A DNA stretch of 64,000 bases from positions 14,975 to 78,974 of the forward strand of contig CAWJEP010000004.1 of assembly GCA_963841935.1 (NCBI GenBank), in the 5' to 3' direction. The notes under the pieces are model-generated. The model saw only the letters and a program-made list of their open reading frames with translations, made no database searches and was not told the DNA's origin. This DNA comes from an uncultured bacterium. Its GTDB lineage: Bacteria > Patescibacteriota > Minisyncoccia > Phycocordibacterales > UBA6065. How positions within the stretch are numbered: position 1 is the stretch's first letter; each line of letters opens with the position of its first letter. Both the position numbers and the translations under genes were made by a program. Shown here piece after piece: positions 2,734-51,102 of the stretch.

Positions 2734-3906
2734 ATGAAAGACAAAGAGATAGAGAAACTCATAAAGGCGGAAGACAAGCGACAGAAAAGCGTGGTGAATC
2801 TCATCGCCTCGGAAAATTATGTTTCCGACGATGTTTTAGCCGCGCTCGGCTCCGTACTGACGAATAAATACGCCGAAGGTTATCCGGCGGCAAGGTATTA
2901 CGGAGGAAATGAAATCACGGACAAAGTAGAAGTCTTGGCGAAGAAGCGCGCGCTTGCGGCATTTGGACTTTCCGAAAACGAATGGAGCGTAAATGTTCAG
3001 CCACTTTCGGGTTCGCCTGCAAACCTAGCGGTTTATCTCGCTCTTGTTCCTCCGCACGAAAAAGTAATGGGAATGTCTCTCGACCAAGGCGGACATCTGA
3101 CCCACGGACACAAAGTTTCCATTACCGGAAAAGTCTGGACGCAAATCCCGTACGGCGTTTCCAAAGAAACTGAAGTCATCGATTACGAAGAAATAAAAAA
3201 TAAAGCCGTGGCGGAGAAACCGAGAATGATTATCGCCGGATTTACCGCCTATCCGCGCGTCATCGATTGGAAAAAATTCCGCGAAATCGCCGACGCCTGC
3301 GGCGCGTATCTGATGGTCGATATGTCTCACATCGCGGGACTTGTCGCGGGCGGCGCGTATCCGTCGCCGTTTCCTTACGCCGATGTCGTAACGACGACCG
3401 TGCATAAAACTCTTCGCGGTCCGCGCTCGGCTATCATTTTTTCCAAGAAAGACGAGCGCGAACTCGGCAAGAAAATCGACAAGGCTGTTTTCCCGGGACT
3501 TCAGGGCGGGCCGCATTTAAATCAAATCGCCGCTGTCGCGGTAGCGCTCAAGGAAGCCACAGCTCCGGCATTCAAAAAATACGCCAAGCAAATCATTTTA
3601 AACGCCCGAAAGCTCGCAAGCGAGCTTTCGGGCCTCGGCTGGAAGATTATTTCCGGCGGCACGGACTCGCACCTAATTTTGGTCAATGTTTTCGGCACAG
3701 TTGGTTACGGCGGCAAAGAAGCAAGCGACAGGTTGGAAAAGGCCGGCATAATCGTCAACAAAAACGCTATTCCATATGACACTCGACCGCCGGTTGACCC
3801 TTCAGGCATTCGCCTCGGCACCGCGGGTGAGACGACTCGCGGAGCGAAAGAAAAAGATATGGTCGCGCTCGCCGAAAGAATGGATAAAATCCTGCGCGGA
3901 AAATGA
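2734..3906 (+). CDS. glyA: serine hydroxymethyltransferase
   Basis: LIASENYVSDDVLAALGSVLTNKYAEGYPAARYYGG and TTTVHKTLRGPRSAIIF motifs. Confidence 0.9.
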   Translation: MKDKEIEKLIKAEDKRQKSVVNLIASENYVSDDVLAALGSVLTNKYAEGYPAARYYGGNEITDKVEVLAKKRALAAFGLSENEWSVNVQPLSGSPANLAVYLALVPPHEKVMGMSLDQGGHLTHGHKVSITGKVWTQIPYGVSKETEVIDYEEIKNKAVAEKPRMIIAGFTAYPRVIDWKKFREIADACGAYLMVDMSHIAGLVAGGAYPSPFPYADVVTTTVHKTLRGPRSAIIFSKKDERELGKKIDKAVFPGLQGGPHLNQIAAVAVALKEATAPAFKKYAKQIILNARKLASELSGLGWKIISGGTDSHLILVNVFGTVGYGGKEASDRLEKAGIIVNKNAIPYDTRPPVDPSGIRLGTAGETTRGAKEKDMVALAERMDKILRGK

Positions 3907-4532
3907 AAAAAGGAAAATTCATCGTGATTGATGGCGGCGAAGGCTCCGGCAAAAGCACCCAGCTCCAATTTTTAAAAGAAAAATATCCGAAAGCTCTGTT
4001 TACCCGCGAACCTGGAGGCTCGGAATACGGCGAAGAAATCAGAAACCTGATGCTCAAATCACCTTTGGCGAAAGAAGCGAGCGCCGAGACGCAGTTCGGT
4101 CTCATTTGGGCGAACCGTGCCGATCACATCGCCAGAAAAGTCCGACCCGCTCTCGATAATGGCGTAAATGTGATTTCCGACAGATTCGATTCGTCGACAT
4201 TCGCTTATCAAATATACGGCCAAGAGGGAACGGAACTGAAAGATTTGTTTTTTGAGATAAGAAAAATTTTTATAAAAGAGTGTGTGCCGGATCTTTATGT
4301 CTTTTTCGACATATCGCCGGAGGAAAGCATCAAAAGGACAACGATGCGCGCGAATCTTTTCGGCGAGAGCAACCACTTCGACGAAAGAAAAATAGAATTT
4401 CACCGCCGTGTGCGGGAAGGTTACGCGGAATTCGCCAAGATTTTCCCGAAGAATGTGAGAATCATCGACGCCAGCGGTTCGAAAGAGGAAGTCTGGAAAT
4501 CGTTTCAAAAAATTCTGGACCCGATTCTTTGA
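3903..4532 (+). CDS. tmk: thymidylate kinase
   Basis: P-loop IVIDGGEGSGKSTQ. Start overlaps the glyA stop (ATGA). Confidence 0.85.
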   Translation: MKKGKFIVIDGGEGSGKSTQLQFLKEKYPKALFTREPGGSEYGEEIRNLMLKSPLAKEASAETQFGLIWANRADHIARKVRPALDNGVNVISDRFDSSTFAYQIYGQEGTELKDLFFEIRKIFIKECVPDLYVFFDISPEESIKRTTMRANLFGESNHFDERKIEFHRRVREGYAEFAKIFPKNVRIIDASGSKEEVWKSFQKILDPIL

Positions 4533-4556
4533 TTTTCGGCGTGGTAAAATATTTCA

Positions 4557-4991
4557 ATGAGTAAAACCTTAAAAATCGTAAGAGTTTCCGAAGTCGTGCC
4601 TGTGCCGAAATACAGCCTCAAGGGCGATGCCGGTTTTGACCTTTATGTGGGCGAGCGACTTGTCTTAAATCCTATGAAACGGGCGTCGGTAAACACCGGA
4701 TACAAGTTGGAGATTCCTTACGGCTGCGTCGGTATTATTTACGAAAAAAGCGGACTCTCGCATAAAAACGGCATTATCACTTTTGGCAATGTCATTGACG
4801 CCGGCTATCGCGGCGAAGTGAAGGTCGGTGTAATAAATCTCGGCGAAGAGCCTTATGTTTTCGAGCCGGGACACAAAATCGCCCAAATGATTGTGCACAA
4901 ATTTGAAACTATGAAATTCAAAGAAGTAAAAGACGGAGAGCTTTCTAAATCCGAACGCGGCGACCGCGGGTTCGGCAGCACGGGAAAATAA
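4557..4991 (+). CDS. dut: dUTP diphosphatase (dUTPase)
   Basis: GDAGFDL, GIIDAGYRGEV-like and C-terminal RGDRGFGSTG motifs. Confidence 0.85.
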   Translation: MSKTLKIVRVSEVVPVPKYSLKGDAGFDLYVGERLVLNPMKRASVNTGYKLEIPYGCVGIIYEKSGLSHKNGIITFGNVIDAGYRGEVKVGVINLGEEPYVFEPGHKIAQMIVHKFETMKFKEVKDGELSKSERGDRGFGSTGK

Positions 4992-4995
4992 TTTT

Positions 4996-6714
4996 ATGGA
5001 AATCCAAAAAGAGTTAAAGACGCAAATAGAAAAAGCCCTGAAAAATCTCGGCCTTACCGCGCCGGAAATAATATTGGAATATCCGTCCGACATATCTTTT
5101 GGAGATTTCGCCACGAATGTCGCTATGAGCGCCGCGAAACAAGCGAAGAAAAACCCGCGCGAATTTGCGGAGCAAATTCGCGCCCAGCTTATCGAAAACA
5201 AACCGAAGTTTTTGGAGAAAATAGAAGTTGCCGGTCCTGGTTTCATAAACTTTTTTCTTTCGCGGCAATTTTTCGCTGATAATTTGGCGGAAGTAGCCAA
5301 ACAAAAAGAAAAATTCGGACAGAACAAACTTTTCAAAGGCGAAAAAGTTCTCGTCGAGTACACCGACCCGAATCCTTTCAAACCTTTTCACATAGGACAC
5401 CTGATGAGCAATGCCATAGGGGAATCGATTGCTTGTCTATATGAAAATTCCGGAGGAAATGTCAAAAGAATGTGTTATCAAGGCGATGTGGGACTTCATG
5501 TGGCTAAAGCCATATACGGAATGCATCAAGCCGGCATGCCGAAGGATATGTCGGCTTCGGCGTCGATTCTTGCTCAATATATCGGCGAATGTTACGCGAA
5601 AGGAAGTGCCGCGTATGAAAAAGAATCCGAAGCGAAAAAATGGATTGACGATGTGAATAAAAAAATTTACGCCAGAAGCGATAAAGAAGTCAGCCAAGTT
5701 TACGATTGGGGAAGAAAAATCACACTCGAAGCCTTCGAAGAAATCTACAAAATTTTGGGTACGAAATTCGATTTTTCTTTTTTCGAGAGTGAGGTCGTAA
5801 AAGAAGGCGAGAAAATCGTCAGTGAATCTTTGAAAAAAGGAATTTTCGAAAAAAGCGACGGAGCGGTGGTATTTCATGCGGAAAAATACGACAAAAAACT
5901 TCACACGAGAGTTTTCATCACCTCGCAAGGACTTCCGACATACGAGACGAAAGAGCTCGGGCTCATAGAAAAGAAATTCAAGAAGATAAATCCGGATATT
6001 TCCATTACCATCACGGCAAACGAACAGGACGAATATTTCAAAGTCGTTTTGAAAGCCATTGAGCTCATTTTTCCGAAAATCAGAAACAAAACGGAACATA
6101 TTTCTCACGGAATGATGCGTTTCGCCGACGGAAAAATGTCTTCACGCACGGGCAATGTAATTTCTGGCGAGTCGCTCATCGCGGATATTGAAGATATGGT
6201 GGAAGAAAAAATAAAAGAAAGAGGTTTTGACGAGGCCACGAGGAAAGACATTGCCCAAAAAGTCGCCGTCGCGGCGATTAAATATTCGATTTTGCGACAG
6301 GGAATATCGAGTGACATCATTTTTGACGCCGACAAGTCCATTTCATTCGAAGGCGACTCCGGTCCGTATCTTCAATACGCCGTCGTACGGGCGAATTCCG
6401 TTTTGGAAAAAGCCAAGAAGGAGGGCCTGAAAGTTTCCGTTAAAAGTCCGGACGAATCGGCGAGTTTGCTCGAGAGGAAACTTTCGAGGTTTCCGGAAAT
6501 CGCGGCGCGCGCCGTGAAGGAGCGCGCGCCGCATCATATCGCCACATATCTGACCGACCTCGCGTCAGAATTCAACTCCTATTACGCTGTGACAAAAATT
6601 ATCGACAAAGAAAATCCGCATTCGTCTTATCGTCTCGCGCTCACAAATGCTTTTGAAATTATTATGAAAAACGGCCTCTCGCTTCTCGGCATCGAAATCC
6701 CCAGCAAAATGTAG
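4996..6714 (+). CDS. argS: arginine--tRNA ligase
   Basis: Class I HIGH motif (PFKPFHIGHLMSNAIGE), ArgS-like length (572 aa) and a DALR-like C-terminus. Confidence 0.9.
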   Translation: MEIQKELKTQIEKALKNLGLTAPEIILEYPSDISFGDFATNVAMSAAKQAKKNPREFAEQIRAQLIENKPKFLEKIEVAGPGFINFFLSRQFFADNLAEVAKQKEKFGQNKLFKGEKVLVEYTDPNPFKPFHIGHLMSNAIGESIACLYENSGGNVKRMCYQGDVGLHVAKAIYGMHQAGMPKDMSASASILAQYIGECYAKGSAAYEKESEAKKWIDDVNKKIYARSDKEVSQVYDWGRKITLEAFEEIYKILGTKFDFSFFESEVVKEGEKIVSESLKKGIFEKSDGAVVFHAEKYDKKLHTRVFITSQGLPTYETKELGLIEKKFKKINPDISITITANEQDEYFKVVLKAIELIFPKIRNKTEHISHGMMRFADGKMSSRTGNVISGESLIADIEDMVEEKIKERGFDEATRKDIAQKVAVAAIKYSILRQGISSDIIFDADKSISFEGDSGPYLQYAVVRANSVLEKAKKEGLKVSVKSPDESASLLERKLSRFPEIAARAVKERAPHHIATYLTDLASEFNSYYAVTKIIDKENPHSSYRLALTNAFEIIMKNGLSLLGIEIPSKM

Positions 6715-6728
6715 TAGAATGGCTCTGT

Positions 6729-9700
6729 ATGGAGCAAAAACCTAGGAATAAGCTTGTGGAAATCGAGGAAGAAATTCTCGCTTTTTGGAACAAGGAGAAA
6801 ATCTTTCAAAAATCCCTCGAAAAAGAATCTCCTATGGGCGAGTTTGTTTTCTACGACGGACCACCATTCGCCACGGGTTCGCCGCACTACGGGCACGCTC
6901 TGGCCGGGACAATCAAAGATGTCGTCTTGCGATACAAGACGATGCGCGGATTTCGCATTCCTCGTCGCTGGGGTTGGGATTGCCACGGATTGCCCGTGGA
7001 AAATCTCGTCGAGAAAGAACTCAATCTCGCCACGAAAAAAGATATTGAAAAATACGGCGTCGAGAAATTCAACGAAGCGGCGAGAGCGAGTGTTTTTCGT
7101 TATGAAAAAGAGTGGAAGAAAATTATTCCGCGCACGGGGAGATGGATGGATATGGAAAATCCTTACAGCACCATGGATTCGTCATACACGGAATCGGTCT
7201 GGTGGGCGTTTAGTAAACTTCACAAAAAAAATCTCATCTATGAAGGATATAAATCGATGCAGATTTGTCCGCGTTGCGAGACGACCTTGTCGAATTTCGA
7301 AGTCGGGCAAGGATACAAAGACGTCACGGATATTTCCGTTTACGCGAAATTCGAACTCATTGACGAGCCGAACACATTTCTCCTCGCTTGGACGACCACG
7401 CCATGGACATTGCCGGGGAATGCGGCTCTAGCGGTCGGCAGGAATATAAATTATTCAAAAGTTTTGTGCGAAAACGCGATATGTATCGTCGCCGAAGAAA
7501 AAGTCGCCGAAGTTTTTGCCGGAAAACAATATGAAACAGCCGGAAAAATTCTCGGGAGCGGGCTTGTCGGAAAAGAATACGAACCGCTGTTTGATTATTA
7601 CGACGATGATTCGATAAAAAATCACGGGAACGCTTTTAAAGTTTACGCCGCGGATTTTGTCACGACCACTGACGGCACGGGAATCGTCCACATCGCTCCG
7701 GCGTTCGGCGAAGACGATATGAATCTGGGCCGTGAATACGATTTGCCTTTTATCCAGCACGTCTCGATGGACGGAACTTTCAAAAAAGAAGTCAGAGATT
7801 TCGCCGGCCTTCATGTAAAGCCGAAAGACGACCCGCAGAAAACGGACATAGAAATCATCAAATGGCTCGCGGCGAAAAACCTGCTTTTCGCCAAGAAAAA
7901 AATCGTCCATCCGTATCCGCATTGCTGGCGTTGCGACACGCCACTTCTCAATTACGCCGCGAGCTCGTGGTTCGTGAAAGTGGCGAGTTTCAAGGATAAA
8001 TTGGTTTCTGAAAACAAAAAAGTCTCGTGGGTACCAAGCGAAATCGGCGAAAACAGGTTTGGCGATTGGCTTTCCGGCGCGCGGGATTGGGCTATTTCGC
8101 GTTCGCGTTTCTGGGGCGCGCCTATTCCAGTCTGGCGTTGCGAAGATTGCGATAGGGCAAAGGTCGTCGGCTCGCTTGAAGACATAAAAAAATATTCAAA
8201 GCCGAGAAACAAATACATTTTGATGCGCCACGGCGAGTCCGAAAGCAATGTTTTGGGCTTGGCAAGCGTAAATGTTCATAACAAAGACAATGTTACCGAG
8301 AAAGGCAGAGGGGAAACGGTATTTTCGGCCAAGAAACTTTCCGGCGAGAAAATAGACCTCGTAGTTTCTTCACCTTTTATTAGGACAAGAGAAACAGCGG
8401 AAATCATGGCGGAAAATATCGGATACCCGAAAGAAAAAATAGAATACGATAATCGTTTGGGAGAATTGAACATCGGAATTTTCGACGGTAAACCTTGGAG
8501 CGAGTATCACGGTTTTGTCGGAACTTATCAAAACAGATTTATCAAAGCACCCGAAGGCGGCGAGACGCTTTTTGAAGTCAGAGAAAGGATGCTTTCGGCG
8601 CTTTACGACATTGATAAAAAAAATACCGGGAAAACTATTCTCATCATGAGTCACGAAGCGCCGCTTTTCGTCCTCGACCAAGCGGTTTTGGGAGTTGACC
8701 CGAAAAAAACCGTAAAGCACGGAGAGTTTTTGAAAAACGCAGAGTTCAAGAAAATAAATTTCGTTCATCTTCCTCACGATAAAAATTTCAAAACGGATTT
8801 TCATCGGCCTTTCATCGACCAGATTTTCCTCTCCTGCGAATGCGGTGGAAAAATGAAACGCGTGCCGGAAGTTTTCGACTGCTGGTTTGAATCCGGCTCG
8901 ATGCCTTACGCCTCGGCGCATTATCCTTTCGAAAAAGAAAATTTTTCTCCGAGAAAATTTTTCAAAAGCAAGCGCTATCCGGCGGATTTTATCGCCGAGG
9001 GACTCGACCAAACTCGCGGATGGTTTTATTCGATGCTCGTCCTCGGCACGGCGCTTTTCGGAAAAACACCCTATAAAAATGTGGTGGTAAACGGCCTTAT
9101 TCTCGCCGAAGACGGCACAAAAATGTCCAAATCAAAAGGCAATTTCTCGCCGCTTATGGATACCATGGACAAATACGGCGCGGACGCTTTGCGGTATTTT
9201 CTGTCCGCGTCGCCCGCCGTCCGCGCCGAAGACGTGTGTTTTTCCGAAAAAAGCGTCGATGAAGTATCGAAAAAGCTTTTGCAAAGACTCGACAACGTTT
9301 TGGCTTTTTACGAACTTTACGCCGACAAGAAATTTGTCGAGAAAACCGAGCCGAAAAATATTTTGGACAAATGGATACTCGCCAGACTCGATGAGACGAT
9401 AAAGAAAGTCACGGAAGCGCTCGAAAAATACGAGCTCGACCGAGGCGCGCGGCCGATTTTGGATTTCGTCGACGATATGTCGAATTGGTATATACGCCGT
9501 AGCCGAGAGAGGTTTAAATCCGACGACGAGGCAGACAAATCGGCCGCGCTAAACACTACGCGACACGTGCTCTGCGAACTTTCAAAGATTATGGCGCCGT
9601 TCACGCCTTTCTACGCCGAATATCTTTTCGGAAAAACGAAATTCGAAGGCGCGAAAGAAAGCGTTCATCTCGAAAATTGGCTGGAAGCGAAAACTTTCGA

Positions 9701-10181
9701 CGAGAAATTGGTTGACGATATGAAAGAAGCGAGAAAACTTGTGACGCTCGGCCTAGAACAAAGGGCGAAAGCCGGAATAAAAGTCCGCCAGCCCCTCTCA
9801 AGCGCGAAAATGAAAATCAGAAATCTAACGGCTGGCGTGTCAGCACTCATCGCGGACGAACTCAATGTCAAAGAAATCGTAAATAGCGACGGAGAGATTC
9901 AAATAGACACCAATATCACGCCGGCACTTCGCGAAGAGGGAACAGTCCGAGAGTTTGTCCGCGCGGTGCAGGAACTGCGTAAGGAGAATGGATTTTCCGT
10001 AAGCGACCATGCTGTTCTCTTAGTTGACTCCGACGAAAAAGGCAAGGAGCTCGTGTCCAAATCCCACGCCGAACTTAAAAAAGTCGCAAATGTTTCGGAA
10101 ATCAAGCACGAAAAAATCAACGATGCCGAACTTCTCAAAATCGAGGAATATTCTTTTAAACTCAAAATACTTAAGAAGTAA
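6729..10181 (+). CDS. ileS: isoleucine--tRNA ligase (archaeal/eukaryotic type) carrying an inserted histidine-phosphatase domain
   Basis: PPFATGSPHYGHAL, HCWRCDTPL, RDWAISRSRFWGAPIPVW, EVFDCWFESGSMPYA and KMSKSKGN motifs. Continuous 1150-aa ORF. Confidence 0.9.
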   Translation: MEQKPRNKLVEIEEEILAFWNKEKIFQKSLEKESPMGEFVFYDGPPFATGSPHYGHALAGTIKDVVLRYKTMRGFRIPRRWGWDCHGLPVENLVEKELNLATKKDIEKYGVEKFNEAARASVFRYEKEWKKIIPRTGRWMDMENPYSTMDSSYTESVWWAFSKLHKKNLIYEGYKSMQICPRCETTLSNFEVGQGYKDVTDISVYAKFELIDEPNTFLLAWTTTPWTLPGNAALAVGRNINYSKVLCENAICIVAEEKVAEVFAGKQYETAGKILGSGLVGKEYEPLFDYYDDDSIKNHGNAFKVYAADFVTTTDGTGIVHIAPAFGEDDMNLGREYDLPFIQHVSMDGTFKKEVRDFAGLHVKPKDDPQKTDIEIIKWLAAKNLLFAKKKIVHPYPHCWRCDTPLLNYAASSWFVKVASFKDKLVSENKKVSWVPSEIGENRFGDWLSGARDWAISRSRFWGAPIPVWRCEDCDRAKVVGSLEDIKKYSKPRNKYILMRHGESESNVLGLASVNVHNKDNVTEKGRGETVFSAKKLSGEKIDLVVSSPFIRTRETAEIMAENIGYPKEKIEYDNRLGELNIGIFDGKPWSEYHGFVGTYQNRFIKAPEGGETLFEVRERMLSALYDIDKKNTGKTILIMSHEAPLFVLDQAVLGVDPKKTVKHGEFLKNAEFKKINFVHLPHDKNFKTDFHRPFIDQIFLSCECGGKMKRVPEVFDCWFESGSMPYASAHYPFEKENFSPRKFFKSKRYPADFIAEGLDQTRGWFYSMLVLGTALFGKTPYKNVVVNGLILAEDGTKMSKSKGNFSPLMDTMDKYGADALRYFLSASPAVRAEDVCFSEKSVDEVSKKLLQRLDNVLAFYELYADKKFVEKTEPKNILDKWILARLDETIKKVTEALEKYELDRGARPILDFVDDMSNWYIRRSRERFKSDDEADKSAALNTTRHVLCELSKIMAPFTPFYAEYLFGKTKFEGAKESVHLENWLEAKTFDEKLVDDMKEARKLVTLGLEQRAKAGIKVRQPLSSAKMKIRNLTAGVSALIADELNVKEIVNSDGEIQIDTNITPALREEGTVREFVRAVQELRKENGFSVSDHAVLLVDSDEKGKELVSKSHAELKKVANVSEIKHEKINDAELLKIEEYSFKLKILKK
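8206..8775 (+). other. in-frame histidine phosphatase (PGAM-like, RHG superfamily) domain inserted within ileS
   Basis: YILMRHGESESN (RHG catalytic motif), SSPFIRTRETAE, ILIMSHEAPL (His-containing second half). It lies between IleS segments VVGSLEDIKKYS and TDFHRPFIDQIF, which are contiguous in canonical type-2 IleS. Confidence 0.7.
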
Positions 10182-10191
10182 GAAATCTTGT

Positions 10192-10219
10192 TTGACATAA
10201 AGTCTCTTCTCACTAGTAT
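10192..10219 (+). promoter_or_regulatory. sigma70-like promoter, TTGACA-N16-TAGTAT
   Basis: TTGACA at 10192-10197, TAGTAT at 10214-10219, upstream of the GTG-start gene at 10279. Confidence 0.45.
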
Positions 10220-10278
10220 GGGCTTAGTGACTCTTTCCATGATCAACACAAACAATAACCCTTAACCAAGGCTTACAG

Positions 10279-10854
10279 GTGGCTTCACAATACACGCAGG
10301 CGAAAATTACCCTCACGGGTCTCGCGGGAACAGGCAAGTCGTCGGCGGGCAAGATATTGAAGGACGCGTTAAATCTAAAGTGCCACCTCTCCGCCGGAGA
10401 TTTCGTCAGGGAAATGGTCGAAGGCGGAAAATGGGGACTTCAGACTCTCGATGAGTTTGAGACTCGCGCTCAGACTGACTTCCGATATGACTGCGAAATC
10501 GACCAGAGGACTACAAACTTCGGCGTCGAGAACACGAGCTTTGTCTTCGATGGCCGGATGGCGTGGGATTGTATCCCAAGGTCCATAAAAATCCTGCTGA
10601 CTTGCGATGATACCGTGAGATTCGAGCGTGTCGCCAACCACAGGAATATGTCCGTCAATGAGGCGGTGGCGCAGACCATTCATCGCGAGGCGAGCATAAG
10701 GTTCAGGTTTCACAAGTGGTATCGGTTCGCGCGTTTCGACGACCCGAAACATTTCGACCTCGTCATAGACACGACCGATAAGCCGTCGGAGCTCGTGGTT
10801 GGCGATATTATAGACTTCGCCGCGTCGCGAGGCGTGGTACGCATAGCGGCATAA
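10279..10854 (+). CDS. cytidylate-kinase-like family P-loop protein
   Basis: Walker A motif TLTGLAGTGKSSAGKIL. GTG start. GC content is noticeably higher than flanking genes. Promoter upstream and terminator downstream. Confidence 0.55.
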   Translation: MASQYTQAKITLTGLAGTGKSSAGKILKDALNLKCHLSAGDFVREMVEGGKWGLQTLDEFETRAQTDFRYDCEIDQRTTNFGVENTSFVFDGRMAWDCIPRSIKILLTCDDTVRFERVANHRNMSVNEAVAQTIHREASIRFRFHKWYRFARFDDPKHFDLVIDTTDKPSELVVGDIIDFAASRGVVRIAA

Positions 10855-10857
10855 TAC

Positions 10858-10896
10858 CCAGAGCCCGTCCGTGAAAATGGACGCGGCTCTTTTTTG
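10858..10896 (+). terminator. rho-independent terminator
   Basis: gagcccgtccgtgaaaatggacgcggctc hairpin followed by TTTTTTG. Confidence 0.5.
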
Positions 10897-10909
10897 TTAG
10901 AATAAACGG

Positions 10910-11389
10910 ATGTACGCGATTTATGAAACTGAAGCTTTCGTTCTAGAATCATCCGGCAGGCGCGAGGCCGACAAGATTTTTTCTTTGTATACCGAAGAAT
11001 TCGGAATGATTCGCGCGAGCGCGATTGCGGTGCGAAAAATGCAATCAAAACTGCGTCCACATCTTACCGATTTTTCTCTAGTGTCCGTGTCGCTCGTGCG
11101 AGGCAGAGAGACTTGGAGAATCACGGCGGCGCGGCGATTTCTCGCCGCGCCGCCCCATCTCATCCGCCCATTGCTTCTCGTCAGGCGCCTTGTTCACGGG
11201 GAGATGGCTCAGCCGAAACTTTTTTCCATCCTGCGCGAGGCCTTCATGGGTAATATGCCAGAAACCTCGGCGGTTCTTCGCATTCTTCACGAGCTTGGCT
11301 ATGTTGATGAGAAGACTCTGTCCGTTAACCCGAGCACAAAAGAAGCCGTGGTGCTCATCAACAAAGCCATTCGCGAGAGTCAACTTTAA
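10910..11389 (+). CDS. recO: DNA repair protein RecO, short form
   Basis: N-terminus AIVLESSGRREADKIFSLYTEEFGMIRASAIAVRK matches the RecO N-terminal OB-fold consensus. 159 aa is shorter than typical RecO. Confidence 0.6.
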   Translation: MYAIYETEAFVLESSGRREADKIFSLYTEEFGMIRASAIAVRKMQSKLRPHLTDFSLVSVSLVRGRETWRITAARRFLAAPPHLIRPLLLVRRLVHGEMAQPKLFSILREAFMGNMPETSAVLRILHELGYVDEKTLSVNPSTKEAVVLINKAIRESQL

Positions 11390-11401
11390 TAGTCAGACAC
11401 G

Positions 11402-13321
11402 TTGGCGTGGTATAATTTTCCAATGCCTTTGTTCGAGGATAAGAATAAAAGTTCCATAGACAGAGTCCGCCGCAACCTTTACGCGCGCAAGGCGCCAGCC
11501 AGCGGAGAAGTGCGCCACGATATTCATGTTCCTCGAGAAGAAAATGTGGTCGCCGATTGGGCTGACAACGCAGAAAAAAAATCTCCGGGTTTCCAATTGC
11601 CATCGCCAAAAAAGTCTTATCGAGTGCTTTTTTGGTTCGCTTTGGGACTTTTCGTGTTGTCCGCTGGCGTCGCGGCTTATTCTTTCTTCGGTGGCTCGGT
11701 CTTTGTGTCATCGGACAACGTTGATATGACCATTACCGGACCGACGACCGTCGCCGGCGGCTCACCCACGAGTTTTTCCGTGGCCGTTACCAATAAAAAC
11801 AAGACGGACATCGAGCTCGTCGACCTCATCGCCGATTTTCCCATAGGAACTAAGGACCCATCGAATCCGACGCAGGACGTGGGCCGGCAAGACGTTTCGC
11901 TCGGCACGATAAAAGCCGGCCAAGTAGCCCAAAGCCAATTTCAGGGAATATTTTTCGGCGCTCAAGGCGACACCGAGACGATAAAATTTACCGTTGAATA
12001 CCGCACCGCGGATTCGAACGCCGTTTTTTACAAAGAAAAAGACATTCCAGTTGCCATATCCTCGTCGCCCATATCCGTGGCGGTTTCCGGTCTCGACGCC
12101 GTGAATTCCGGCGAGCCGATGACGCTTACCTTTACCGTGTCGTCTAACAGCACAAACGTGGTCAACGATGTGGCGCTCGAGCTCACATATCCTTTCGGCT
12201 GGACGTCGCTTTCTTCCAACCCCGCGCCGTCCTCCGGGCAAAATATCTGGAATCTCGGAGACCTTGCGCCGGGCGCCACGACGACCATAAGCGTTTCCGG
12301 TGAGATAAACGGTCAAGACGGCGACCAAGATGTCATCGGCGCGAGCGCTGGCATCGCGAACGCTCAAGGCGCCATAGCCACGACCATCGTCTCGACCCAG
12401 TACTCGGTTCTGATAGAGAAACCATTTCTCTCCGCCGTCATTTCTCTCGACGGACAAAACGGAAGTAATTACGCCTCGCCGGTCGGCAAAGTAGTCAACG
12501 CCACTATAGATTGGCAGAATACCGGCACCTCGCGCATCACAAACGGCCAAATCGTCGTGGCCCTTTCGGGGAACGCTCTTGACCCGTCGTCGGTTTCCAC
12601 TTCCGACGGATATTACGATTCCGTGGACAACACCATTACTTGGGACGGAGGCCGCGTGCCCACTCTCGCTCTCATCGCTCCCGGAGATTCCGGAGAATTT
12701 CATTTTAGTTTCTCGTCACTCGGAAATATTTCAAATATGACGAGCGCCTCCATCGGTCTCGACCTTTCGGTAAAAGGACAGCGCATCGACCAGTCGAATG
12801 TTCCGCAACAAGTTTCTTCCGAGTCCACGGAAACGGTGAAAATAGTTTCCAACCTTTCTTTGTCGTCGCGCGCCGTTTATTCTTCGGTGGTAATGCAAAA
12901 CGCCGGACCGCTTCCCCCGAAAGTAAACCAAACGACCGATTACGCGGTCATTTGGACGGCGGCGAACACTTCAAACGCCGTTTCCGGCGTGAAAGTTTCC
13001 GCCACGCTTCCGCCTTACGCCGCGTTTACGGGAGTGACTTATCCATCAAACGCTAGCGTCTCGTACTCGTCGTCCACGGGAAATTTTATTTGGAACGTCG
13101 GCGCGCTTGCTTCAGGCGCGACGTCGGAGCTTGATTTCCAAGTTTCCGTCACGCCAAGCGCGCCGCAGGCCAATACTTCGCCAATCATCATCGGCGGCGC
13201 GACCATCACGGGTATCGACAATTTTGCCGGCGTTTCAGTACAAGCTTCCGCAGAGCCGGTGACGACCGACATATCAAGCGATCCGACATTCGCGCCAGGC
13301 GACGAAACGGTTGGACAATAG
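11402..13321 (+). CDS. membrane-anchored cell-surface protein with DUF11-like beta-sandwich repeats
   Basis: N-terminal cytoplasmic segment and a single TM (VLFWFALGLFVLSAGVAAYSFF). Repeated IWNLGDLAPGATTTISVSGEINGQ / FIWNVGALASGATSELDFQVSVTP modules. Confidence 0.7.
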   Translation: MAWYNFPMPLFEDKNKSSIDRVRRNLYARKAPASGEVRHDIHVPREENVVADWADNAEKKSPGFQLPSPKKSYRVLFWFALGLFVLSAGVAAYSFFGGSVFVSSDNVDMTITGPTTVAGGSPTSFSVAVTNKNKTDIELVDLIADFPIGTKDPSNPTQDVGRQDVSLGTIKAGQVAQSQFQGIFFGAQGDTETIKFTVEYRTADSNAVFYKEKDIPVAISSSPISVAVSGLDAVNSGEPMTLTFTVSSNSTNVVNDVALELTYPFGWTSLSSNPAPSSGQNIWNLGDLAPGATTTISVSGEINGQDGDQDVIGASAGIANAQGAIATTIVSTQYSVLIEKPFLSAVISLDGQNGSNYASPVGKVVNATIDWQNTGTSRITNGQIVVALSGNALDPSSVSTSDGYYDSVDNTITWDGGRVPTLALIAPGDSGEFHFSFSSLGNISNMTSASIGLDLSVKGQRIDQSNVPQQVSSESTETVKIVSNLSLSSRAVYSSVVMQNAGPLPPKVNQTTDYAVIWTAANTSNAVSGVKVSATLPPYAAFTGVTYPSNASVSYSSSTGNFIWNVGALASGATSELDFQVSVTPSAPQANTSPIIIGGATITGIDNFAGVSVQASAEPVTTDISSDPTFAPGDETVGQ

Positions 13322-31666: not shown

Positions 31667-33085
31667 ATGCGTCGGCGGACGTACTTTTTTATTTCGTTTT
31701 TAACTCTCGGTTTCCTTGTCCCGTTTTGTGTTCTCGCCGATTCCAGCAATATTAGTTCCCTAGTTTTTACAACCGAACCACAGACCGTAGACGCCGGTGT
31801 TCTTTCTCAAGAAATGACCGTCCAAACGCAGGATATTTCTGGTAATCCGATTCCGGCAGGAGAGACAAGCACCACAACTTTAACGAGCACGTCTCCCACA
31901 GGTCAGTTTTTTGGACCATCCGGCACATCGGCATTTTCACAAACAACTTCCGCTACCACAGAAAATAGAAATTTTACTTACAAAGATTCGAACCCAGGTA
32001 CATACACCATCACGGCGACGTTAATAGGCCGAACGAGCGGTAAGCAGTTTTCCGCGACGCAGACAATTGTTGTTACCGGTTCATCGGCTGATAATTCTTC
32101 ATCGGATAATTCAGACGCCTCTTCCACAAATAATTCATCAGCCGATTTAAATACCACTTCAAACAATTCGGAAGAGAACTCTTCCGACGCCTATTCAAGC
32201 CAAGAAACGATTTACGCCGGTTCGGATGATGAATCTTTCGGTTTGAGTATTGGCAGGAATCGTTTGGTCTCGGTCGGTGAGCCGGTTGTTTTTCTCGCGA
32301 GAATCATTTCCGGCGATTCATCATACGCCGGGACGCTTTTTCATTTCGCTTTTGGCGACGGCACCGAATGGAACGGCGAAAGCGCGACCCATACGTATAA
32401 ATACCCTGGAGATTATATTGTCGTCGTCGAAGCCAACCGATTTGGCGTGGATGCTGTCGCCGAAGCCAAGGTAAAAGTTGTCTCTCCGGACGTGGTCATT
32501 TCAAATTCCGACGCGAATTCGGTTGTTGTGACAAACAACGGAGCCGATGAAATCAATTTGGGCGGTTGGGTCATAACCGACTTCGTTGGAAGGTTTATCG
32601 TGCCGCAGGACACGATAATTTTGGCCCATTCGTCAATTACTGTTTCCTCGTCCGTGATGAAAACGAAAACTTTTTCCGGAGTCATAAGTCTTTATGACCC
32701 GTCGGAGAAGGAAGTGGCCGCCGCGCCTACGGACGCGGCGGCGGGCGGAGACATGACGATTGCTTTGCCTGGGGGAATGACTGCGGCTGAATTTAGCGAT
32801 ACGTTCTCACAGAAATTTTCCGACGCTTTGAAAGATTCCGAAACATCCGTTGAGGGAAATGGTGTGAAGGAGACGAAGGTAGTGGCGCGGCCTGCCGGCG
32901 GGCAGGCCGCGCCACTGCCCGCTAACGCGGAAGCGGCGGTCGCCGCTTCGTCGTCTCCAGAAGTCGCCGTCAACGAGTCCAGTTCCTCGGCGGCTACGGT
33001 GATTTATAGTGTTCCACACCATTCTGAGGACTCTGTTTTCTCCGGCATCGGTTCTTGGTTTAGCGGCCTATTCGGAAAAAAATGA
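31667..33085 (+). CDS. secreted protein with signal peptide, Ser/Asn-rich linker, PKD domain and LTD domain
   Basis: Signal peptide FFISFLTLGFLVPFCVLA. PKD-like region FHFAFGDGTEWNGESATHTYKYPGDYIVVVEANRFG. LTD-like region VVVTNNGADEINLGGWVITDFVGRFIVPQD. Confidence 0.7.
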   Translation: MRRRTYFFISFLTLGFLVPFCVLADSSNISSLVFTTEPQTVDAGVLSQEMTVQTQDISGNPIPAGETSTTTLTSTSPTGQFFGPSGTSAFSQTTSATTENRNFTYKDSNPGTYTITATLIGRTSGKQFSATQTIVVTGSSADNSSSDNSDASSTNNSSADLNTTSNNSEENSSDAYSSQETIYAGSDDESFGLSIGRNRLVSVGEPVVFLARIISGDSSYAGTLFHFAFGDGTEWNGESATHTYKYPGDYIVVVEANRFGVDAVAEAKVKVVSPDVVISNSDANSVVVTNNGADEINLGGWVITDFVGRFIVPQDTIILAHSSITVSSSVMKTKTFSGVISLYDPSEKEVAAAPTDAAAGGDMTIALPGGMTAAEFSDTFSQKFSDALKDSETSVEGNGVKETKVVARPAGGQAAPLPANAEAAVAASSSPEVAVNESSSSAATVIYSVPHHSEDSVFSGIGSWFSGLFGKK

Positions 33086-36045
33086 AAAAATCCATAAATA
33101 TTTTGGTGGTTATCGGAATTTCGACGGCATTTTTTGTCGCACCGGCTTTAGCTCACGCCTATACGATTGTCACGGGTAGCAGTCTACCTTCAGATACCGA
33201 ATGGACGGCCGACAAAAGTCCCTACGTCATCATGAATGATTTTACTGTTCCACTGGACGTGACGCTCACTATAGACCCAGGCGTCGTCGTCGAATTCACC
33301 GGACGGGAGAGTCTATATGTTTGGGGAAACATCATAGCTAACGGTACGACAAACCAGAAAATTTATTTTACCGCCGCCGGAGACGCTTCAGTTGGAGCGG
33401 TTCTTAATGATTCCGACGATATTTTTCCGATTTCCTTGTGGGGAATTGTCGTCGAAGGCGGCGTCTTGAACATGAACAACGCCGAAATGCGCTCCATGGT
33501 TTATGGCATTGATATGTACGGCGGTAATATTGATCTGAATAACGTGTCAATATCCGGAGATGAACCAACGATAGAAGATATAAACGGCACACTTGATTTT
33601 TCGAATGTTGATCTAGGTGGCGATCCCGGCTATGCGATTCTTTTAGGCGGTTCTTACGCCGAGCTTTTCGCGAATAATGTCTCGATTCACGATAGTGGTG
33701 GAGGTGTAGAGACGTGGGCAAACGCTAAAATTTCCGCCACAAACCTAAACTTATCGCGTATAAACGGACAAGCATTCAATTTGATTGGCGGGTCATTAAA
33801 TCTTTCCGATTCAACATTATCCGACATATACACCACCGCAAATCTTGCGGCAATTTCAACGACCATTGGTACGAGCTTGTCCATAGATTCGACAACTATC
33901 TCAAACGTATCTGGCACGGTTATTAATATTTTGAATGGAGCCAATGTCTCTATATCAAATACGGTCATATCAAACGCAGTTGGAGGGATCGAAATAAGCG
34001 ACGGCCTTTCATATTTGCCCAATTATAGTCCGAACGCGTTAAATACTATCTCGTCCTCCACCATTTCGAACATTGATAACGACGCCATCGATGTTTCCGG
34101 CGCCAATTTAAATGTTTCAGGTTCGTCTCTGACGAACATCGGTCAGTACGCTCTGTACAACACGGATTCTTCGCCACTCGCGGCCGCTGAAAATAATTAC
34201 TGGGGCGACCCAAGCGGACCATACAATCCAAATTCAAATCCAAACGGCCACGGTGCGGAAGTTTCCGATGGCGTTGATTTTTCAAATTGGACAGGAGAGA
34301 CGGCATCTACGGCCACAACTACTTCGGCCACTTCCACTCCGTCGGAATCAACTACAACTTCTTCCGTACTCGAACCGGTGATTATTATTCCCGGCATATT
34401 CGGTTCGGAAGAAAAAGACGGCGCGTGGGTAATGGACCCGATTCTCCACGCTTACGACGACCTCATTGCTACTTTGGCTGCGAACGGGTACAGCACGAGC
34501 ACGACGCTTTTTACTTTTCCTTATGATTGGAGGAATTCAAATGTCGTGACGGCAAAACTTTTGGAACAAAAAATTTCCGAAGTAAAAACCATTTGCGGGT
34601 GTTCAAGAGTAAATCTCGTGGCTCACTCGATGGGCGGACTAGTGGCGCGGCAGTATATTCAATCCGACGATTACCAAAATGACGTGGACAAAGTGATTTT
34701 TCTTGGCACGCCACACCTCGGCGCACCGGAAGATTATTTTGCTTGGGAGGGTGCAGTCGCCTCTCCAAATCCTCTGGATCTTTCTGGAAAAGTAATGGAC
34801 GCCATTCTTGGCGAATATGGTTTGCACGAGGGATATTTAAGTCCGTTTAATTTTATCCATGAAAAAGTGCCATCTATTCAAGAGCTTTTGCCAATCAGTG
34901 CATATAAGTTTGATTTTGACACTGGGGAAATTCAAGAATATTCATCGTCTACTTACCCAACAAATTCTTTTTTGGAAAATTTGGAGGCCACAAAAAGTCT
35001 TTTAAGTAGTCGAGTCAATGTTTTTAACATCGTGGGGGACATTGGTGGCAGTTCAACCATAGAAAAAATAGGAGTCCGTCCAGCAACTGATATAGCTCCT
35101 TTTTATACAGATGGTCAGCCCGCAACGATTTTGTCTGGAGGCCTCATTTATGGCGATGGTGACGGCACAGTTCCTCTTTCAAGCGCTAGTGATTTCCCAG
35201 TCTACGACACGTTAGATCAGAAACATACAGATTTACCTGATTATGCTGAGGAAGATGTATTTAAAATATTAACAGGGGGTAGTCTTCAGACAATTATTCG
35301 TGATGCAGTCATTCCAGATTTACGATTTTTGGTCATAAATTTGTTTTCCCCGATTCACATTCTGATTACAGCTCCTGACGGCAAAAGAATCGGTTACGAC
35401 CCTACGACCGGACAAGAAATAAACGAAATTTCGGGAGCTTTTTATACCGGCACAACGACAGAAAACGAGTATATAACAATTCCAAATCCTGAAGACGGGC
35501 AGTACCAAGTCGAGTCAATAGGATATGCTGATGGAGACTATACCATTACCGCGTCAGATGTTACCGGCGGTTCCACTACAAACACAAGTATGAGCGGTAC
35601 GACATCGGTCGGCGCTCAATCGTCACAGACTTTTACCCTGAGCTCGTCCACTGTTCTCTCTATCAATACGGACGCGAGTTCTCAACAATCGGAACAGACC
35701 ATTTCTGCTTTGTCTGTCCATCAATACGGCGGCGGGAATTCAGTCACCGCCACGCAAACAAAAGAAAAATTTGATCCGAACACTTTTATGATAACAATGA
35801 ACGCGCCTATAGATAAATTCGTGAAGGAATACAAGCTGGCTTATCGTTCTACGCATTGGGGTGAATATCAGGCGGAACTCGCGGAAAATAATAGCCAAGT
35901 GACAACTTCAACTGAGGTAGAAACAGCGTCTGTTTATCAAGCCGTGCCGAGTTCTCTAAATGATGAATTGAGTTGGTTTGCCGACAAATTTGTCGGTATA
36001 ATTAGCAAAGTTGCCGGTAATCTTTTTAATCTCATAAACAAATGA
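33082..36045 (+). CDS. large secreted protein: N-terminal right-handed beta-helix repeats and central alpha/beta-hydrolase (lipase / LCAT / PGAP1-like) domain
   Basis: Signal peptide. Repeated NVSISN/SISNTVISN beta-helix-like segments. Lipase core PVIIIPGIFGS…VNLVAHSMGGLVARQYI (GxSxG)…FLGTPHLGAP. 987 aa with no frame disruption. Confidence 0.75.
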   Translation: MKKSINILVVIGISTAFFVAPALAHAYTIVTGSSLPSDTEWTADKSPYVIMNDFTVPLDVTLTIDPGVVVEFTGRESLYVWGNIIANGTTNQKIYFTAAGDASVGAVLNDSDDIFPISLWGIVVEGGVLNMNNAEMRSMVYGIDMYGGNIDLNNVSISGDEPTIEDINGTLDFSNVDLGGDPGYAILLGGSYAELFANNVSIHDSGGGVETWANAKISATNLNLSRINGQAFNLIGGSLNLSDSTLSDIYTTANLAAISTTIGTSLSIDSTTISNVSGTVINILNGANVSISNTVISNAVGGIEISDGLSYLPNYSPNALNTISSSTISNIDNDAIDVSGANLNVSGSSLTNIGQYALYNTDSSPLAAAENNYWGDPSGPYNPNSNPNGHGAEVSDGVDFSNWTGETASTATTTSATSTPSESTTTSSVLEPVIIIPGIFGSEEKDGAWVMDPILHAYDDLIATLAANGYSTSTTLFTFPYDWRNSNVVTAKLLEQKISEVKTICGCSRVNLVAHSMGGLVARQYIQSDDYQNDVDKVIFLGTPHLGAPEDYFAWEGAVASPNPLDLSGKVMDAILGEYGLHEGYLSPFNFIHEKVPSIQELLPISAYKFDFDTGEIQEYSSSTYPTNSFLENLEATKSLLSSRVNVFNIVGDIGGSSTIEKIGVRPATDIAPFYTDGQPATILSGGLIYGDGDGTVPLSSASDFPVYDTLDQKHTDLPDYAEEDVFKILTGGSLQTIIRDAVIPDLRFLVINLFSPIHILITAPDGKRIGYDPTTGQEINEISGAFYTGTTTENEYITIPNPEDGQYQVESIGYADGDYTITASDVTGGSTTNTSMSGTTSVGAQSSQTFTLSSSTVLSINTDASSQQSEQTISALSVHQYGGGNSVTATQTKEKFDPNTFMITMNAPIDKFVKEYKLAYRSTHWGEYQAELAENNSQVTTSTEVETASVYQAVPSSLNDELSWFADKFVGIISKVAGNLFNLINK

Positions 36046-47777: not shown

Positions 47778-48389
47778 ATGAAACACCCAAAAGAAGAACG
47801 GACGCTTATTATTGTGAAACCCGACGCGGTACAGAGAAATCTGATTGGGGAAATAATTTCCAGATTCGAAAAACTCGGCCTCAAAATCGCCGCGATTAAA
47901 ATGCTTGTGCCGACGGTGGAGCACGTGGAGGCGCATTATACCCTGGACCCGCAGTGGCGTCGGATTACGGGAGAAAAAACCATAAAAGCTTACACCGACA
48001 GGGGACTCAAGCATCCCGTTAGCGACGACCCGATAAAAGTCACCGAAATAATTTTGCAGAAACTCAAGGATTACATAGCCAGCGGTCCCGTCATACCGAT
48101 AGTTTTGGAAGGAGCGCACGCGGTGGAGGTCGTTCGCAAGCTTGTCGGCGGCACGGAGCCCCTCCGTGCCGCCGCGGTCGGCACTATCCGCGGAGATTTC
48201 GCTTTAGATTCGTATTCTATGGCCGACACGGACGGCCGCTCCGTAAGAAATCTAATTCACGCCTCCGGAAGCGTCGCCGAAGCGGATAAAGAAATCAAAC
48301 ATTGGTTCAAAAAAGAGGAAATCATCGACTATAAACTCGTGATGGAGGACATTCTATACGGCAAGAACCTTGACGGACTGCTTAAATAG
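47778..48389 (+). CDS. ndk: nucleoside diphosphate kinase with a C-terminal extension of about 50 aa
   Basis: LIIVKPDAVQRNLIGEIISRFEKLGLKIAAIKM and GSDS-like HASGS motif; 203 aa. Confidence 0.85.
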   Translation: MKHPKEERTLIIVKPDAVQRNLIGEIISRFEKLGLKIAAIKMLVPTVEHVEAHYTLDPQWRRITGEKTIKAYTDRGLKHPVSDDPIKVTEIILQKLKDYIASGPVIPIVLEGAHAVEVVRKLVGGTEPLRAAAVGTIRGDFALDSYSMADTDGRSVRNLIHASGSVAEADKEIKHWFKKEEIIDYKLVMEDILYGKNLDGLLK

Positions 48390-50448: not shown

Positions 50449-51102
50449 ATGAAAAGGATATATCTCGTCCGCCATGGGGAAAGCGAGGGAAATCTCGGAC
50501 CGTTCCGGCAAGGAGCAGACACTCCACTCTCGCCGACAGGAATCAAGCAGGCGGAGTTTGTCGCAAAACGCTTTGAAGTCATTTCAATCGATCGGGTGAT
50601 TGCTAGTACTTACCAACGTGCCAAGCATACCGCTGAAATCATAAACAAAATCATCAACAAACCGATAGAATATTCGGATCTTATCGTGGAAAGAAAAAGG
50701 CCTTCCGTGATCGTCGGCAAGCTAAAAGATGATCCCGAGGTTCTCAAGATAGAAGCTCTTATAAAGGAACATTTTCATTCTCCTGACTGGAGGTATTCGG
50801 ACGAAGAAAGTTTCAGTGATCTCAAGAATCGAGCCCTTGAAACAATAAAATATTTAGAAGGGTGTAAAGAAGAAAATATACTTCTGGTCACTCACGGGAT
50901 CTTCTCCAGGATGATTGCCAGCTGCATTATCATGGGAAAAGAACTTACCTCTCATGAATATCATAATTTATCCTTATCTCTAACCACCGATAATACGGGC
51001 ATCTCATTGTTGGAGAGGTGGGATGAATCAAAATACGATCACCCGTGGACGATTGCCACGTGGAATGATCATGAACACATTGGGGACGGGGAGGAGATAT
51101 GA
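50449..51102 (+). CDS. histidine phosphatase family protein (phosphoglycerate-mutase-like)
   Basis: IYLVRHGESEGN (RHG motif) and LLVTHGIFSRMI (second catalytic His region). Confidence 0.75.
   Translation: MKRIYLVRHGESEGNLGPFRQGADTPLSPTGIKQAEFVAKRFEVISIDRVIASTYQRAKHTAEIINKIINKPIEYSDLIVERKRPSVIVGKLKDDPEVLKIEALIKEHFHSPDWRYSDEESFSDLKNRALETIKYLEGCKEENILLVTHGIFSRMIASCIIMGKELTSHEYHNLSLSLTTDNTGISLLERWDESKYDHPWTIATWNDHEHIGDGEEI

Follow-up and report, generated by a model that had tools for sequence, protein, structure and literature searches.

Why does a bacterium of reduced metabolism keep a second enzyme inside the synthetase that charges its isoleucine tRNA? The question is raised by the ileS gene of an uncultured member of the Patescibacteriota, in a 64,000-nucleotide (nt) stretch of contig CAWJEP010000004.1 (the whole stretch is called the window below). 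The gene encodes a type-2 isoleucyl-tRNA synthetase (IleRS) in which a domain of the histidine phosphatase superfamily is nested. Aminoacyl-tRNA synthetases are among the most conserved enzymes, and the Patescibacteria are a radiation of very small bacteria that depend on hosts and have a minimal metabolism. To our knowledge, new catalytic domains inside synthetases are rare and have usually revealed new biology, as did the editing domains and the signalling appendages of eukaryotes. Here, a second enzyme appears to be nested in a surface subdomain, the third connective polypeptide (CP3), of the window's sole IleRS, under strong selection across much of the Patescibacteria. The fusion thus poses a choice between metabolic economy in a reduced genome and a new link between phosphate metabolism and translation.

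A first-pass annotation of the window had described a continuous IleS reading frame of 1150 amino acids (aa) with a histidine-phosphatase domain in it, and domain searches bore out both points. In a Pfam scan of the 1150-aa protein, tRNA-synt_1 was split into two parts (aa 16-492, and again from about aa 703), and His_Phos_1 (PF00300) was found between them at aa 497-663 (E=1.5e-27, 96.9 bits, cut-off 21.7). The same segment scanned alone against PF00300 gave 101.5 bits (E=6e-29, cut-off 21.7), and the whole protein matched the NCBIfam ileS model TIGR00392 with 896.4 bits (cut-off 621.4, E=2e-269). In an alignment with 8c8u, the IleRS2 of Priestia megaterium, query residues 6-490 matched residues 7-478 and query residues 680-1054 matched residues 477-852. 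Because the alignment resumes at residue 477, about 190-195 aa are cleanly inserted and nothing is displaced. The annotation had given the insert as 8164-8835; an insert is indeed there, but these coordinates are one base out of frame and take in about 12 flanking residues on each side, the proper extent being 8199-8783. The RHG, SSPFIRTRETAE and ILIMSHEAPL motifs and the Cys pairs were all at the places where the annotation had put them. The gene and the key features of the insert are as follows.

6729..10181, + strand: ileS gene, type-2 isoleucyl-tRNA synthetase with nested phosphatase; 1150 aa in a single uninterrupted open reading frame (ORF).
8199..8783, + strand: inserted histidine-phosphatase (PhoE/PspA-like) domain, aa 491-685; Pfam envelope aa 497-663, nt 8217-8717.
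8226..8234, + strand: RHG motif, comprising R500, H501 (predicted phospho-acceptor nucleophile) and G502; identified by conservation.
Starting at aa 547, + strand: SSPFIRTRETAE motif of the insert, read from the sequence.
8382..8384, + strand: R552, second phosphate-binding arginine (motif SSPxxRT); kept in 166/166.
8463..8465, + strand: E579, predicted proton donor (motif L-x-E-x-x-x-G); E in 162/166 and D in 4/166.
8652..8654, + strand: H642, second catalytic histidine (ILIMSH; ILIMSHEAPL starts at aa 637); kept in 166/166.

Does the insert fold as a phosphatase? The whole protein was modelled with AlphaFold2 (AF2) on a 148-sequence alignment, with a mean predicted local distance difference test (pLDDT) of 94 and a predicted template modelling score (pTM) of 0.88. 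Confidence within the insert was mostly 85-97, down to 76 at residues 661-670, and both junctions were confident. The model showed that the insert has the alpha/beta fold of the histidine phosphatase superfamily, branch 1. Its nearest structural neighbours were PspA, PhoE and GpgP (1H2E, 4IJ5, 6S2Q), and superfamily members that are cap-less or protein-directed aligned with it over fewer residues and with lower Z.

Does it also look like a working enzyme? Conservation of the key residues in the insert and of the Cys pairs was counted over 166 fusion homologues, and that of the IleRS motifs over 148. Five residues of the insert, R500, H501, R552, E612 and H642, were present in 100% of the proteins, followed by R620 (99%), E579 (98%, else D), G502 (96%) and N507 (92%). 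Mean pairwise identity was about 40% in the insert, about 60% in the catalytic parts of IleRS and 38% in the C-terminal domain. When the window was compared with L083, the closest relative with DNA (89% identity), the ratio of nonsynonymous to synonymous substitution rates (dN/dS) was 0.072 for the insert versus 0.057-0.094 for the IleRS segments and 0.137 for the C-terminal domain, at a dS of about 0.9. These estimates show the insert to be under purifying selection equal to that on the synthetase core. The essentially invariant catalytic set and the dN/dS values are what a catalytically competent domain would be expected to show. Judging by other members of the superfamily, H501 would be the phospho-acceptor, E579 would donate the proton, and R500, R552 and H642 would hold the phosphate; E579 would presumably correspond to E89 of dPGM and E327 of FBPase-2.

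The insert reached no curated subfamily cut-off (dPGM, PspA, CobC, GpmB, SixA). It scored 51 versus 350 for PspA (NF045917), 65.7 versus 162.9 for CobC (TIGR03162), 64.7 versus 225 for the archaeal dPGM model NF038349 and 46.4 versus 261 for PRK03482 (GpmB), and the isolated insert scored 20.5 versus 81.7 for TIGR01258. A substrate cannot be assigned because every named subfamily cut-off was missed, and the insert is best regarded as a PhoE-like member of branch 1 without an assignable substrate. High structural similarity to PspA and CobC does not define the substrate. The full-size "cap" and the PspA, PhoE and GpgP neighbours suggest that it is probably a small-molecule phosphoester and not a phosphoprotein.

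Is the host synthetase still complete? Its best class by alignment was IleRS2 (8c8u, E=1.5e-222), compared with E=2e-89 for IleRS1 (8c9e). Foldseek searches with the AF2 model gave template modelling (TM) scores of 0.83-0.93 to the IleRS2 8c8v and to 1ile of Thermus thermophilus and, compared by class, 0.83 for type 2 versus 0.78-0.79 for type 1. The editing domain 1wk8 matched the query (E=2.9e-25), and the C-terminal organisation of type 2 was present (PF19302). The motifs and domains of the synthetase are located as follows.

6885..6896, + strand: HYGH (aa 53-56), the class I signature of HIGH type; H56 nearly invariant across the 148 fusion proteins.
7389..7409, + strand: CP1 editing-site motif WTTTPWT, aa 221-227; W221, T222, T223, T224, P225 and T227 invariant.
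9120..9134, + strand: KMSKS class I signature, aa 798-802; K801 invariant, K798 and M799 nearly invariant.
9366..10175, + strand: anticodon-binding domain and type-2 C-terminal domain (DUF5915); PF08264 at aa 880-1024 (E=1.7e-32) and PF19302 at aa 1057-1149 (E=5e-16).

These results show that the predicted synthetase retains all class Ia IleRS elements, namely HYGH, KMSKS, the CP1 editing motifs, and the anticodon and type-2 C-terminal domains. Charging of tRNA-Ile by the fused IleRS is predicted to be normal, and no second IleS gene was found in the 64-kb window. The mupirocin-resistance models MupB and MupA scored 781.7 and 771.6 bits against cut-offs of 1900, a similarity of the generic type-2 kind only. 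The first-pass annotation had proposed a novel editing or proofreading module. This is unlikely, because the editing domain, CP1, is intact with invariant motifs and because histidine phosphatases hydrolyse phosphomonoesters and not aminoacyl esters or adenylates. The idea of a replacement editing module was rejected on the intactness of CP1.

Where in the synthetase does the insert lie? It had been assigned to the catalytic core, which the structure alignments contradict: the insert is in the peripheral CP3. The segments that surround it are these.

8079..8117, + strand: CP2-CP3 linker ARDWAISRSRFWG, aa 451-463, read from the sequence.
8118..8198, + strand: N-terminal half of CP3, placed by structure alignments; contains, at aa 471-474 (nt 8139-8150), the first Cys pair, CEDC.
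8784..8864, + strand: C-terminal half of CP3, placed by the 8c8u alignment; contains DFHRPFID and, at aa 703-705 (nt 8835-8843), the second Cys pair, CEC.

CP3 comprises residues 473-534 in the IleRS of Candida albicans (PMC7191050) and residues 459-526 in that of yeast (PMC7955072). Query residue 490 corresponds to residue 499 of the C. albicans enzyme, residue 479 of 1ile and about residue 492 of the yeast enzyme (the last taken from alignment ends). Because residue 490 falls within the CP3 of C. albicans and yeast, the insert is inside CP3, the third "connective polypeptide" of the Rossmann fold. This predicted location is peripheral, variable and surface-exposed, away from the active-site core. 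The topology of CP3 differs among all solved IleRSs, and its zinc motif is present in T. thermophilus and not in yeast or Staphylococcus aureus (PMC7191050). Human IARS1 uses its CP3 as the surface on which LARS1 docks (PMC13439101). The CP2-3 linker of yeast IleRS, segment 453-ARDWNVSRNRYWG-465, lines the pocket for the tRNA 3' end and for reveromycin A (PMC7955072).

As the annotation had stated, a Cys pair lies on either side of the insert in a type-2 IleRS that is canonical in other respects, and the flanking Cys4 is the known CP3 zinc knuckle, as in T. thermophilus IleRS. The two cysteines of the first pair were present in 98 and 95 of the 166 proteins and those of the second pair in 98 and 97. 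The knuckle is kept in about 59% of the fusion proteins, with all four cysteines replaced together elsewhere, and it is therefore not part of the phosphatase module. In the C-terminal half of CP3, H692, P694 and D697 were invariant in the 148-protein alignment.

Is the fusion peculiar to this genome? It is not a singular oddity. A search with the full protein returned one identical sequence (P0121) and 119 further full-length proteins with 54-89% identity, whose named sources were Candidatus Paceibacterota, Parcubacteria and the Patescibacteria group. PF00300 together with IleRS domains was found in 120/120 of these top full-length matches, and the phosphatase domain was retained within the reading frame in all 120. 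A HMMER scan of 1.84 billion cluster representatives (50% identity) with a query made of the junctions and the insert yielded at least 166 representatives at E<1e-30; the best 150 of these were mostly long IleRS proteins, with the match falling at about residues 450-750. In GTDB species genomes, the loci found bore the labels Paceibacteria, Minisyncoccia, Yanofskybacteria, Spechtbacterales and Peregrinibacteria/Peribacteria, and 13 GTDB loci carried the whole fusion as a continuous tblastn segment in a single frame. Taken together, these data show that the predicted fusion is a lineage-wide trait of Paceibacteria and relatives, inherited, it appears, across a large clade. Type-2 IleRSs free of the insert also exist (including L070, Peribacteria), and in these the position of window residue 490 is joined directly to that of residues 685-690. 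A crude neighbour-joining tree with the insert masked, which is unreliable at this depth, placed the insert-bearing IleRSs in at least three groups interleaved with insert-free ones. BLAST of the phosphatase domains from Peregrinibacteria favoured fused domains only marginally.

The window holds one more histidine phosphatase, which the annotation had described, correctly, as stand-alone and only distantly similar to the insert.

50449..51102, + strand: stand-alone histidine-phosphatase gene, 217 aa; PF00300 E=5.5e-31.

The two share 34% identity over 61 aa, and the stand-alone gene is a paralogue at the superfamily level only, outside the fusion. A recent duplication of this gene into IleS was rejected, the similarity being confined to those 61 aa.

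The relatives show several variations on the same architecture. Two histidine-phosphatase domains stand in tandem in CP3 in the Peregrinibacteria/Peribacteria loci L022 and L023 and also in protein P0371; the tandem-phosphatase IleRSs of L022 (3534-7907) and L023 (2724-7139) are about 1440-1460 aa long. The first domain has RHA in L022, as in L021, and RHG is found in the second domain of L022 and in both domains of L023. In P0351, besides the CP3 domain, a second His_Phos occupies aa 866-1053, where the anticodon-binding domain begins (corresponding to window aa ~877, nt ~9357). His_Phos at this second site is common to P0351, P0385 (Candidatus Gracilibacteria) and P0386 only. Its similarity to stand-alone PhoE-like proteins equals or exceeds that to the CP3 inserts, and it may be an independent capture. 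Other enzyme domains are nested as well: P0213 has a GNAT acetyltransferase in its CP1 region (aa 285-415), and P0305 has an IS200-like Y1-transposase-like domain in CP1 and a GNAT after the DxWFESG motif (aa 340-461 and 935-1063), each in addition to His_Phos. An IleRS from a metagenome-assembled genome (L050:1679-5248) carries at the very same CP3 point an unrelated insert of 131 aa, with no RHG and no Pfam match. Because of these nested GNAT and Y1-like domains, the extra His_Phos copies and the L050 insert, IleRS in these bacteria can be regarded as a frequent host of nested domains and CP3 as a hot spot.

How, then, are the two enzymes related? The explanation we favour, at about an even chance, is a bifunctional or moonlighting protein in which a normal housekeeping IleRS2 displays an active PhoE-like small-molecule phosphatase on a permissive CP3 loop. 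A PhoE/PspA-like domain nested in a surface loop of CP3 would give one polypeptide two active sites, the second being a phosphomonoesterase that would work through a phospho-His501 intermediate with E579 as the putative proton donor. The two activities would be linked by physical co-residence at a permissive insertion hot spot, and the phosphatase would be held at a fixed stoichiometry with an essential protein. CP3 is considered permissive because its topology varies, because only some IleRSs have the zinc motif (PMC7191050), and because relatives carry the unrelated L050 insert and nested GNAT and Y1-like domains. A direct role of the phosphatase in aminoacylation or editing is less likely than such co-residence. 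The main alternative, which we hold only tentatively, is that the two are functionally coupled, the phosphatase acting on something made at or bound to the IleRS active site. Candidates would be the removal of AMP or pyrophosphate, the healing of a tRNA end with a 2'/3'-phosphate before charging, and self-protection from a phosphorylated IleRS-directed inhibitor or metabolite. Several observations argue for such coupling and weigh against simple co-residence. In the window the association is specific to IleRS, ArgRS and MetRS having no comparable insert; His_Phos has joined IleRS repeatedly, as tandem copies and at a second site; the length of the insert is tightly constrained (most of the 166 fall within 196-200 aa) and its junctions are confidently predicted; and the CP2-3 linker equivalent ARDWAISRSRFWG, which belongs to the tRNA-A76 pocket, ends 28 residues upstream of the insert, hinting at a link with IleRS. 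The substrate and the catalytic activity of the favoured explanation are, moreover, themselves predictions from sequence. Coupling also has a parallel in the GNAT domains in the same IleRS of P0213 and P0305, for which NCBI has a curated family, "ileS_w_GNAT". GNAT domains give self-protection against aminoacyl-nucleotide antibiotics. Against coupling, the known chemistry of the superfamily is the hydrolysis of phosphomonoesters of small metabolites, and we know of no histidine phosphatase superfamily member that acts on tRNA ends or adenylates. CP3 is peripheral and elsewhere merely a docking surface, and the insert evolves faster than the core overall (about 40% versus about 60% mean pairwise identity). 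We consider it doubtful that the phosphatase works in cis as a new kind of synthetase accessory activity, for example by removing 2'/3'-phosphates from damaged tRNA-Ile ends or by destroying a phosphorylated toxin or metabolite. If it did, the repeated capture of His_Phos (and GNAT) by IleRSs of the candidate phyla radiation would reflect selection for on-enzyme repair or self-defence.

The insert might instead be an allosteric sensor that binds, and perhaps slowly turns over, a phosphorylated metabolite, its occupancy tying isoleucine charging to the metabolic state. The invariant phosphate-binding residues fit binding equally well, and rigid, confidently predicted junctions and the nearness in sequence to the linker of the tRNA-end pocket would suit a sensor. 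We nevertheless think it unlikely, since the full catalytic set is kept, E579 included (98% E, else D), which is more than binding requires, and no precedent for a His_Phos sensor in synthetases was found in the full-text literature. Very unlikely, in our view, is a catalytically dead structural appendage, such as a partner-docking surface on a retained ancestral fold. That CP3 of human IARS1 is a protein-docking surface and that L050 has its unrelated 131-aa insert, without a Pfam match, at this very point would both suit an appendage of this kind. Pseudo-enzymes, however, normally lose such catalytic residues, and here R500, R552, H501 and H642 stand at 100% and E579 at 98% although the domain is only about 40% identical, with a dN/dS of 0.07. 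The first-pass annotation had itself named misassembly and a non-phosphatase fold as ways in which its reading could fail; the fold is confirmed, and the fusion recurs in hundreds of independent assemblies. That leaves hardly any probability for an artefact, be it an assembly chimera, a contig joined wrongly, or a gene interrupted by an intein or mobile element. The G+C content of the insert (0.43-0.44) is slightly below that of its flanks (0.47-0.52), and the IleS gene is in pieces in the long-read contigs L001 and L002, where it is called as 3-5 proteins with one break exactly at the insert junction. These breaks are frame shifts inside homopolymer A-runs (L001:5930-6050 and 6980-7100; L002:5730-7060), which are typical long-read errors. 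A naturally split IleRS was rejected on that account and on the more than 120 intact fusions found. Misassembly or a chimera was rejected on purifying selection on the insert and on recurrence, the same in-frame junctions being present in >160 sequence clusters (ENA, JGI, NCBI and Logan assemblies) and the fusion being in one continuous frame in 13 GTDB genomes. The annotation had called the insertion "intein-free", and an intein or mobile element was likewise rejected: in aa 480-702 Pfam sees only His_Phos_1 and no Hint/intein domain. The annotation's other suggestions, a moonlighting phosphatase and a regulatory module, may each apply.

A housekeeping IleRS2 that carries a resident phosphatase can be set beside several known systems. 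The IleRS2 structures of T. thermophilus (1ILE), P. megaterium (8C8U/8C8V) and yeast (8WND) have the same fold, class Ia motifs, CP1, CP core zinc knuckle and type-2 C-terminus, and the CP3 Cys4 motif of the T. thermophilus enzyme is also in the window protein. Among solved or described IleRSs, none carries an enzyme domain in CP3, whereas the window protein has about 195 residues between positions equivalent to 477 and 478 of 8c8u. PhoE, PspA and GpgP (1H2E, 4IJ5, 6S2Q) are free-standing proteins of about 200-215 aa and often dimeric, whereas the domain in the window is internal to a synthetase. NCBIfam NF040702, "ileS_w_GNAT", is a curated precedent for an IleRS with an extra enzyme domain; the window protein has no GNAT by Pfam and scores 325 bits against that model's cut-off of 1999, and the GNAT of P0213 is in CP1, not CP3. 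A CobC/PhoE-like phosphatase is also joined to a nucleic-acid enzyme in the RNase H/acid phosphatases (Mycobacterium tuberculosis Rv2228c and M. smegmatis RnhC; NF005567). Among NCBIfam models, the isolated insert matched NF005567 best (E=5e-20, 72 bits, far below the cut-off of 326). In Rv2228c and RnhC the phosphatase is a C-terminal fusion to RNase H, whereas in the window it is nested in IleRS; a mechanistic link between the two activities is not established there either. In 6-phosphofructo-2-kinase/fructose-2,6-bisphosphatase, tandem domains act on the same metabolite, whereas no shared substrate is evident for the window fusion.

The annotation had known of no described synthetase-phosphatase fusion. 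None was found in the full-text literature (few subscription journals); neither a 2026 survey of >100,000 IleRS sequences nor a 2026 review of the phylum mentions one. Public databases contain many of these sequences, unnamed or under generic names, and nested enzyme domains in IleRS are already recognised ("IleRS with GNAT"). Pipelines call such proteins "class I tRNA ligase family protein" or "histidine phosphatase family protein, partial", and gene callers split the fusion genes where long-read assemblies have homopolymer errors. With the architecture described, thousands of genomes would be better annotated.

The fusion gene lies in a run of + strand genes (window 2734-13321) that encode SHMT, thymidylate kinase, ArgRS, IleRS, a cytidylate-kinase-like protein, RecO and a 639-aa DUF11 protein, an order kept in L083 and in L002. 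Only the N-terminal domain was detected in the window RecO. ArgRS ends 14 nt before the start of IleS, and the two are therefore probably co-transcribed. Among the relatives, the IleS frame of the "Peregrinibacteria" locus L019 (3516-4142) stops early under code 11 while the tblastn alignment continues in-frame; this could be an organism that recodes UGA (code 25) or an error. Elsewhere in the window, a nucleoside diphosphate kinase (NDK) ORF of 203 aa (47778-48389, + strand) is matched by Pfam NDK (135 positions) in two stretches, which suggests that it, too, may have an internal insertion. A 987-aa protein (33082-36045, + strand) combines a right-handed beta-helix with an LCAT/PGAP1-type alpha/beta-hydrolase (lipase-like) and may serve an episymbiont as a secreted or surface enzyme.

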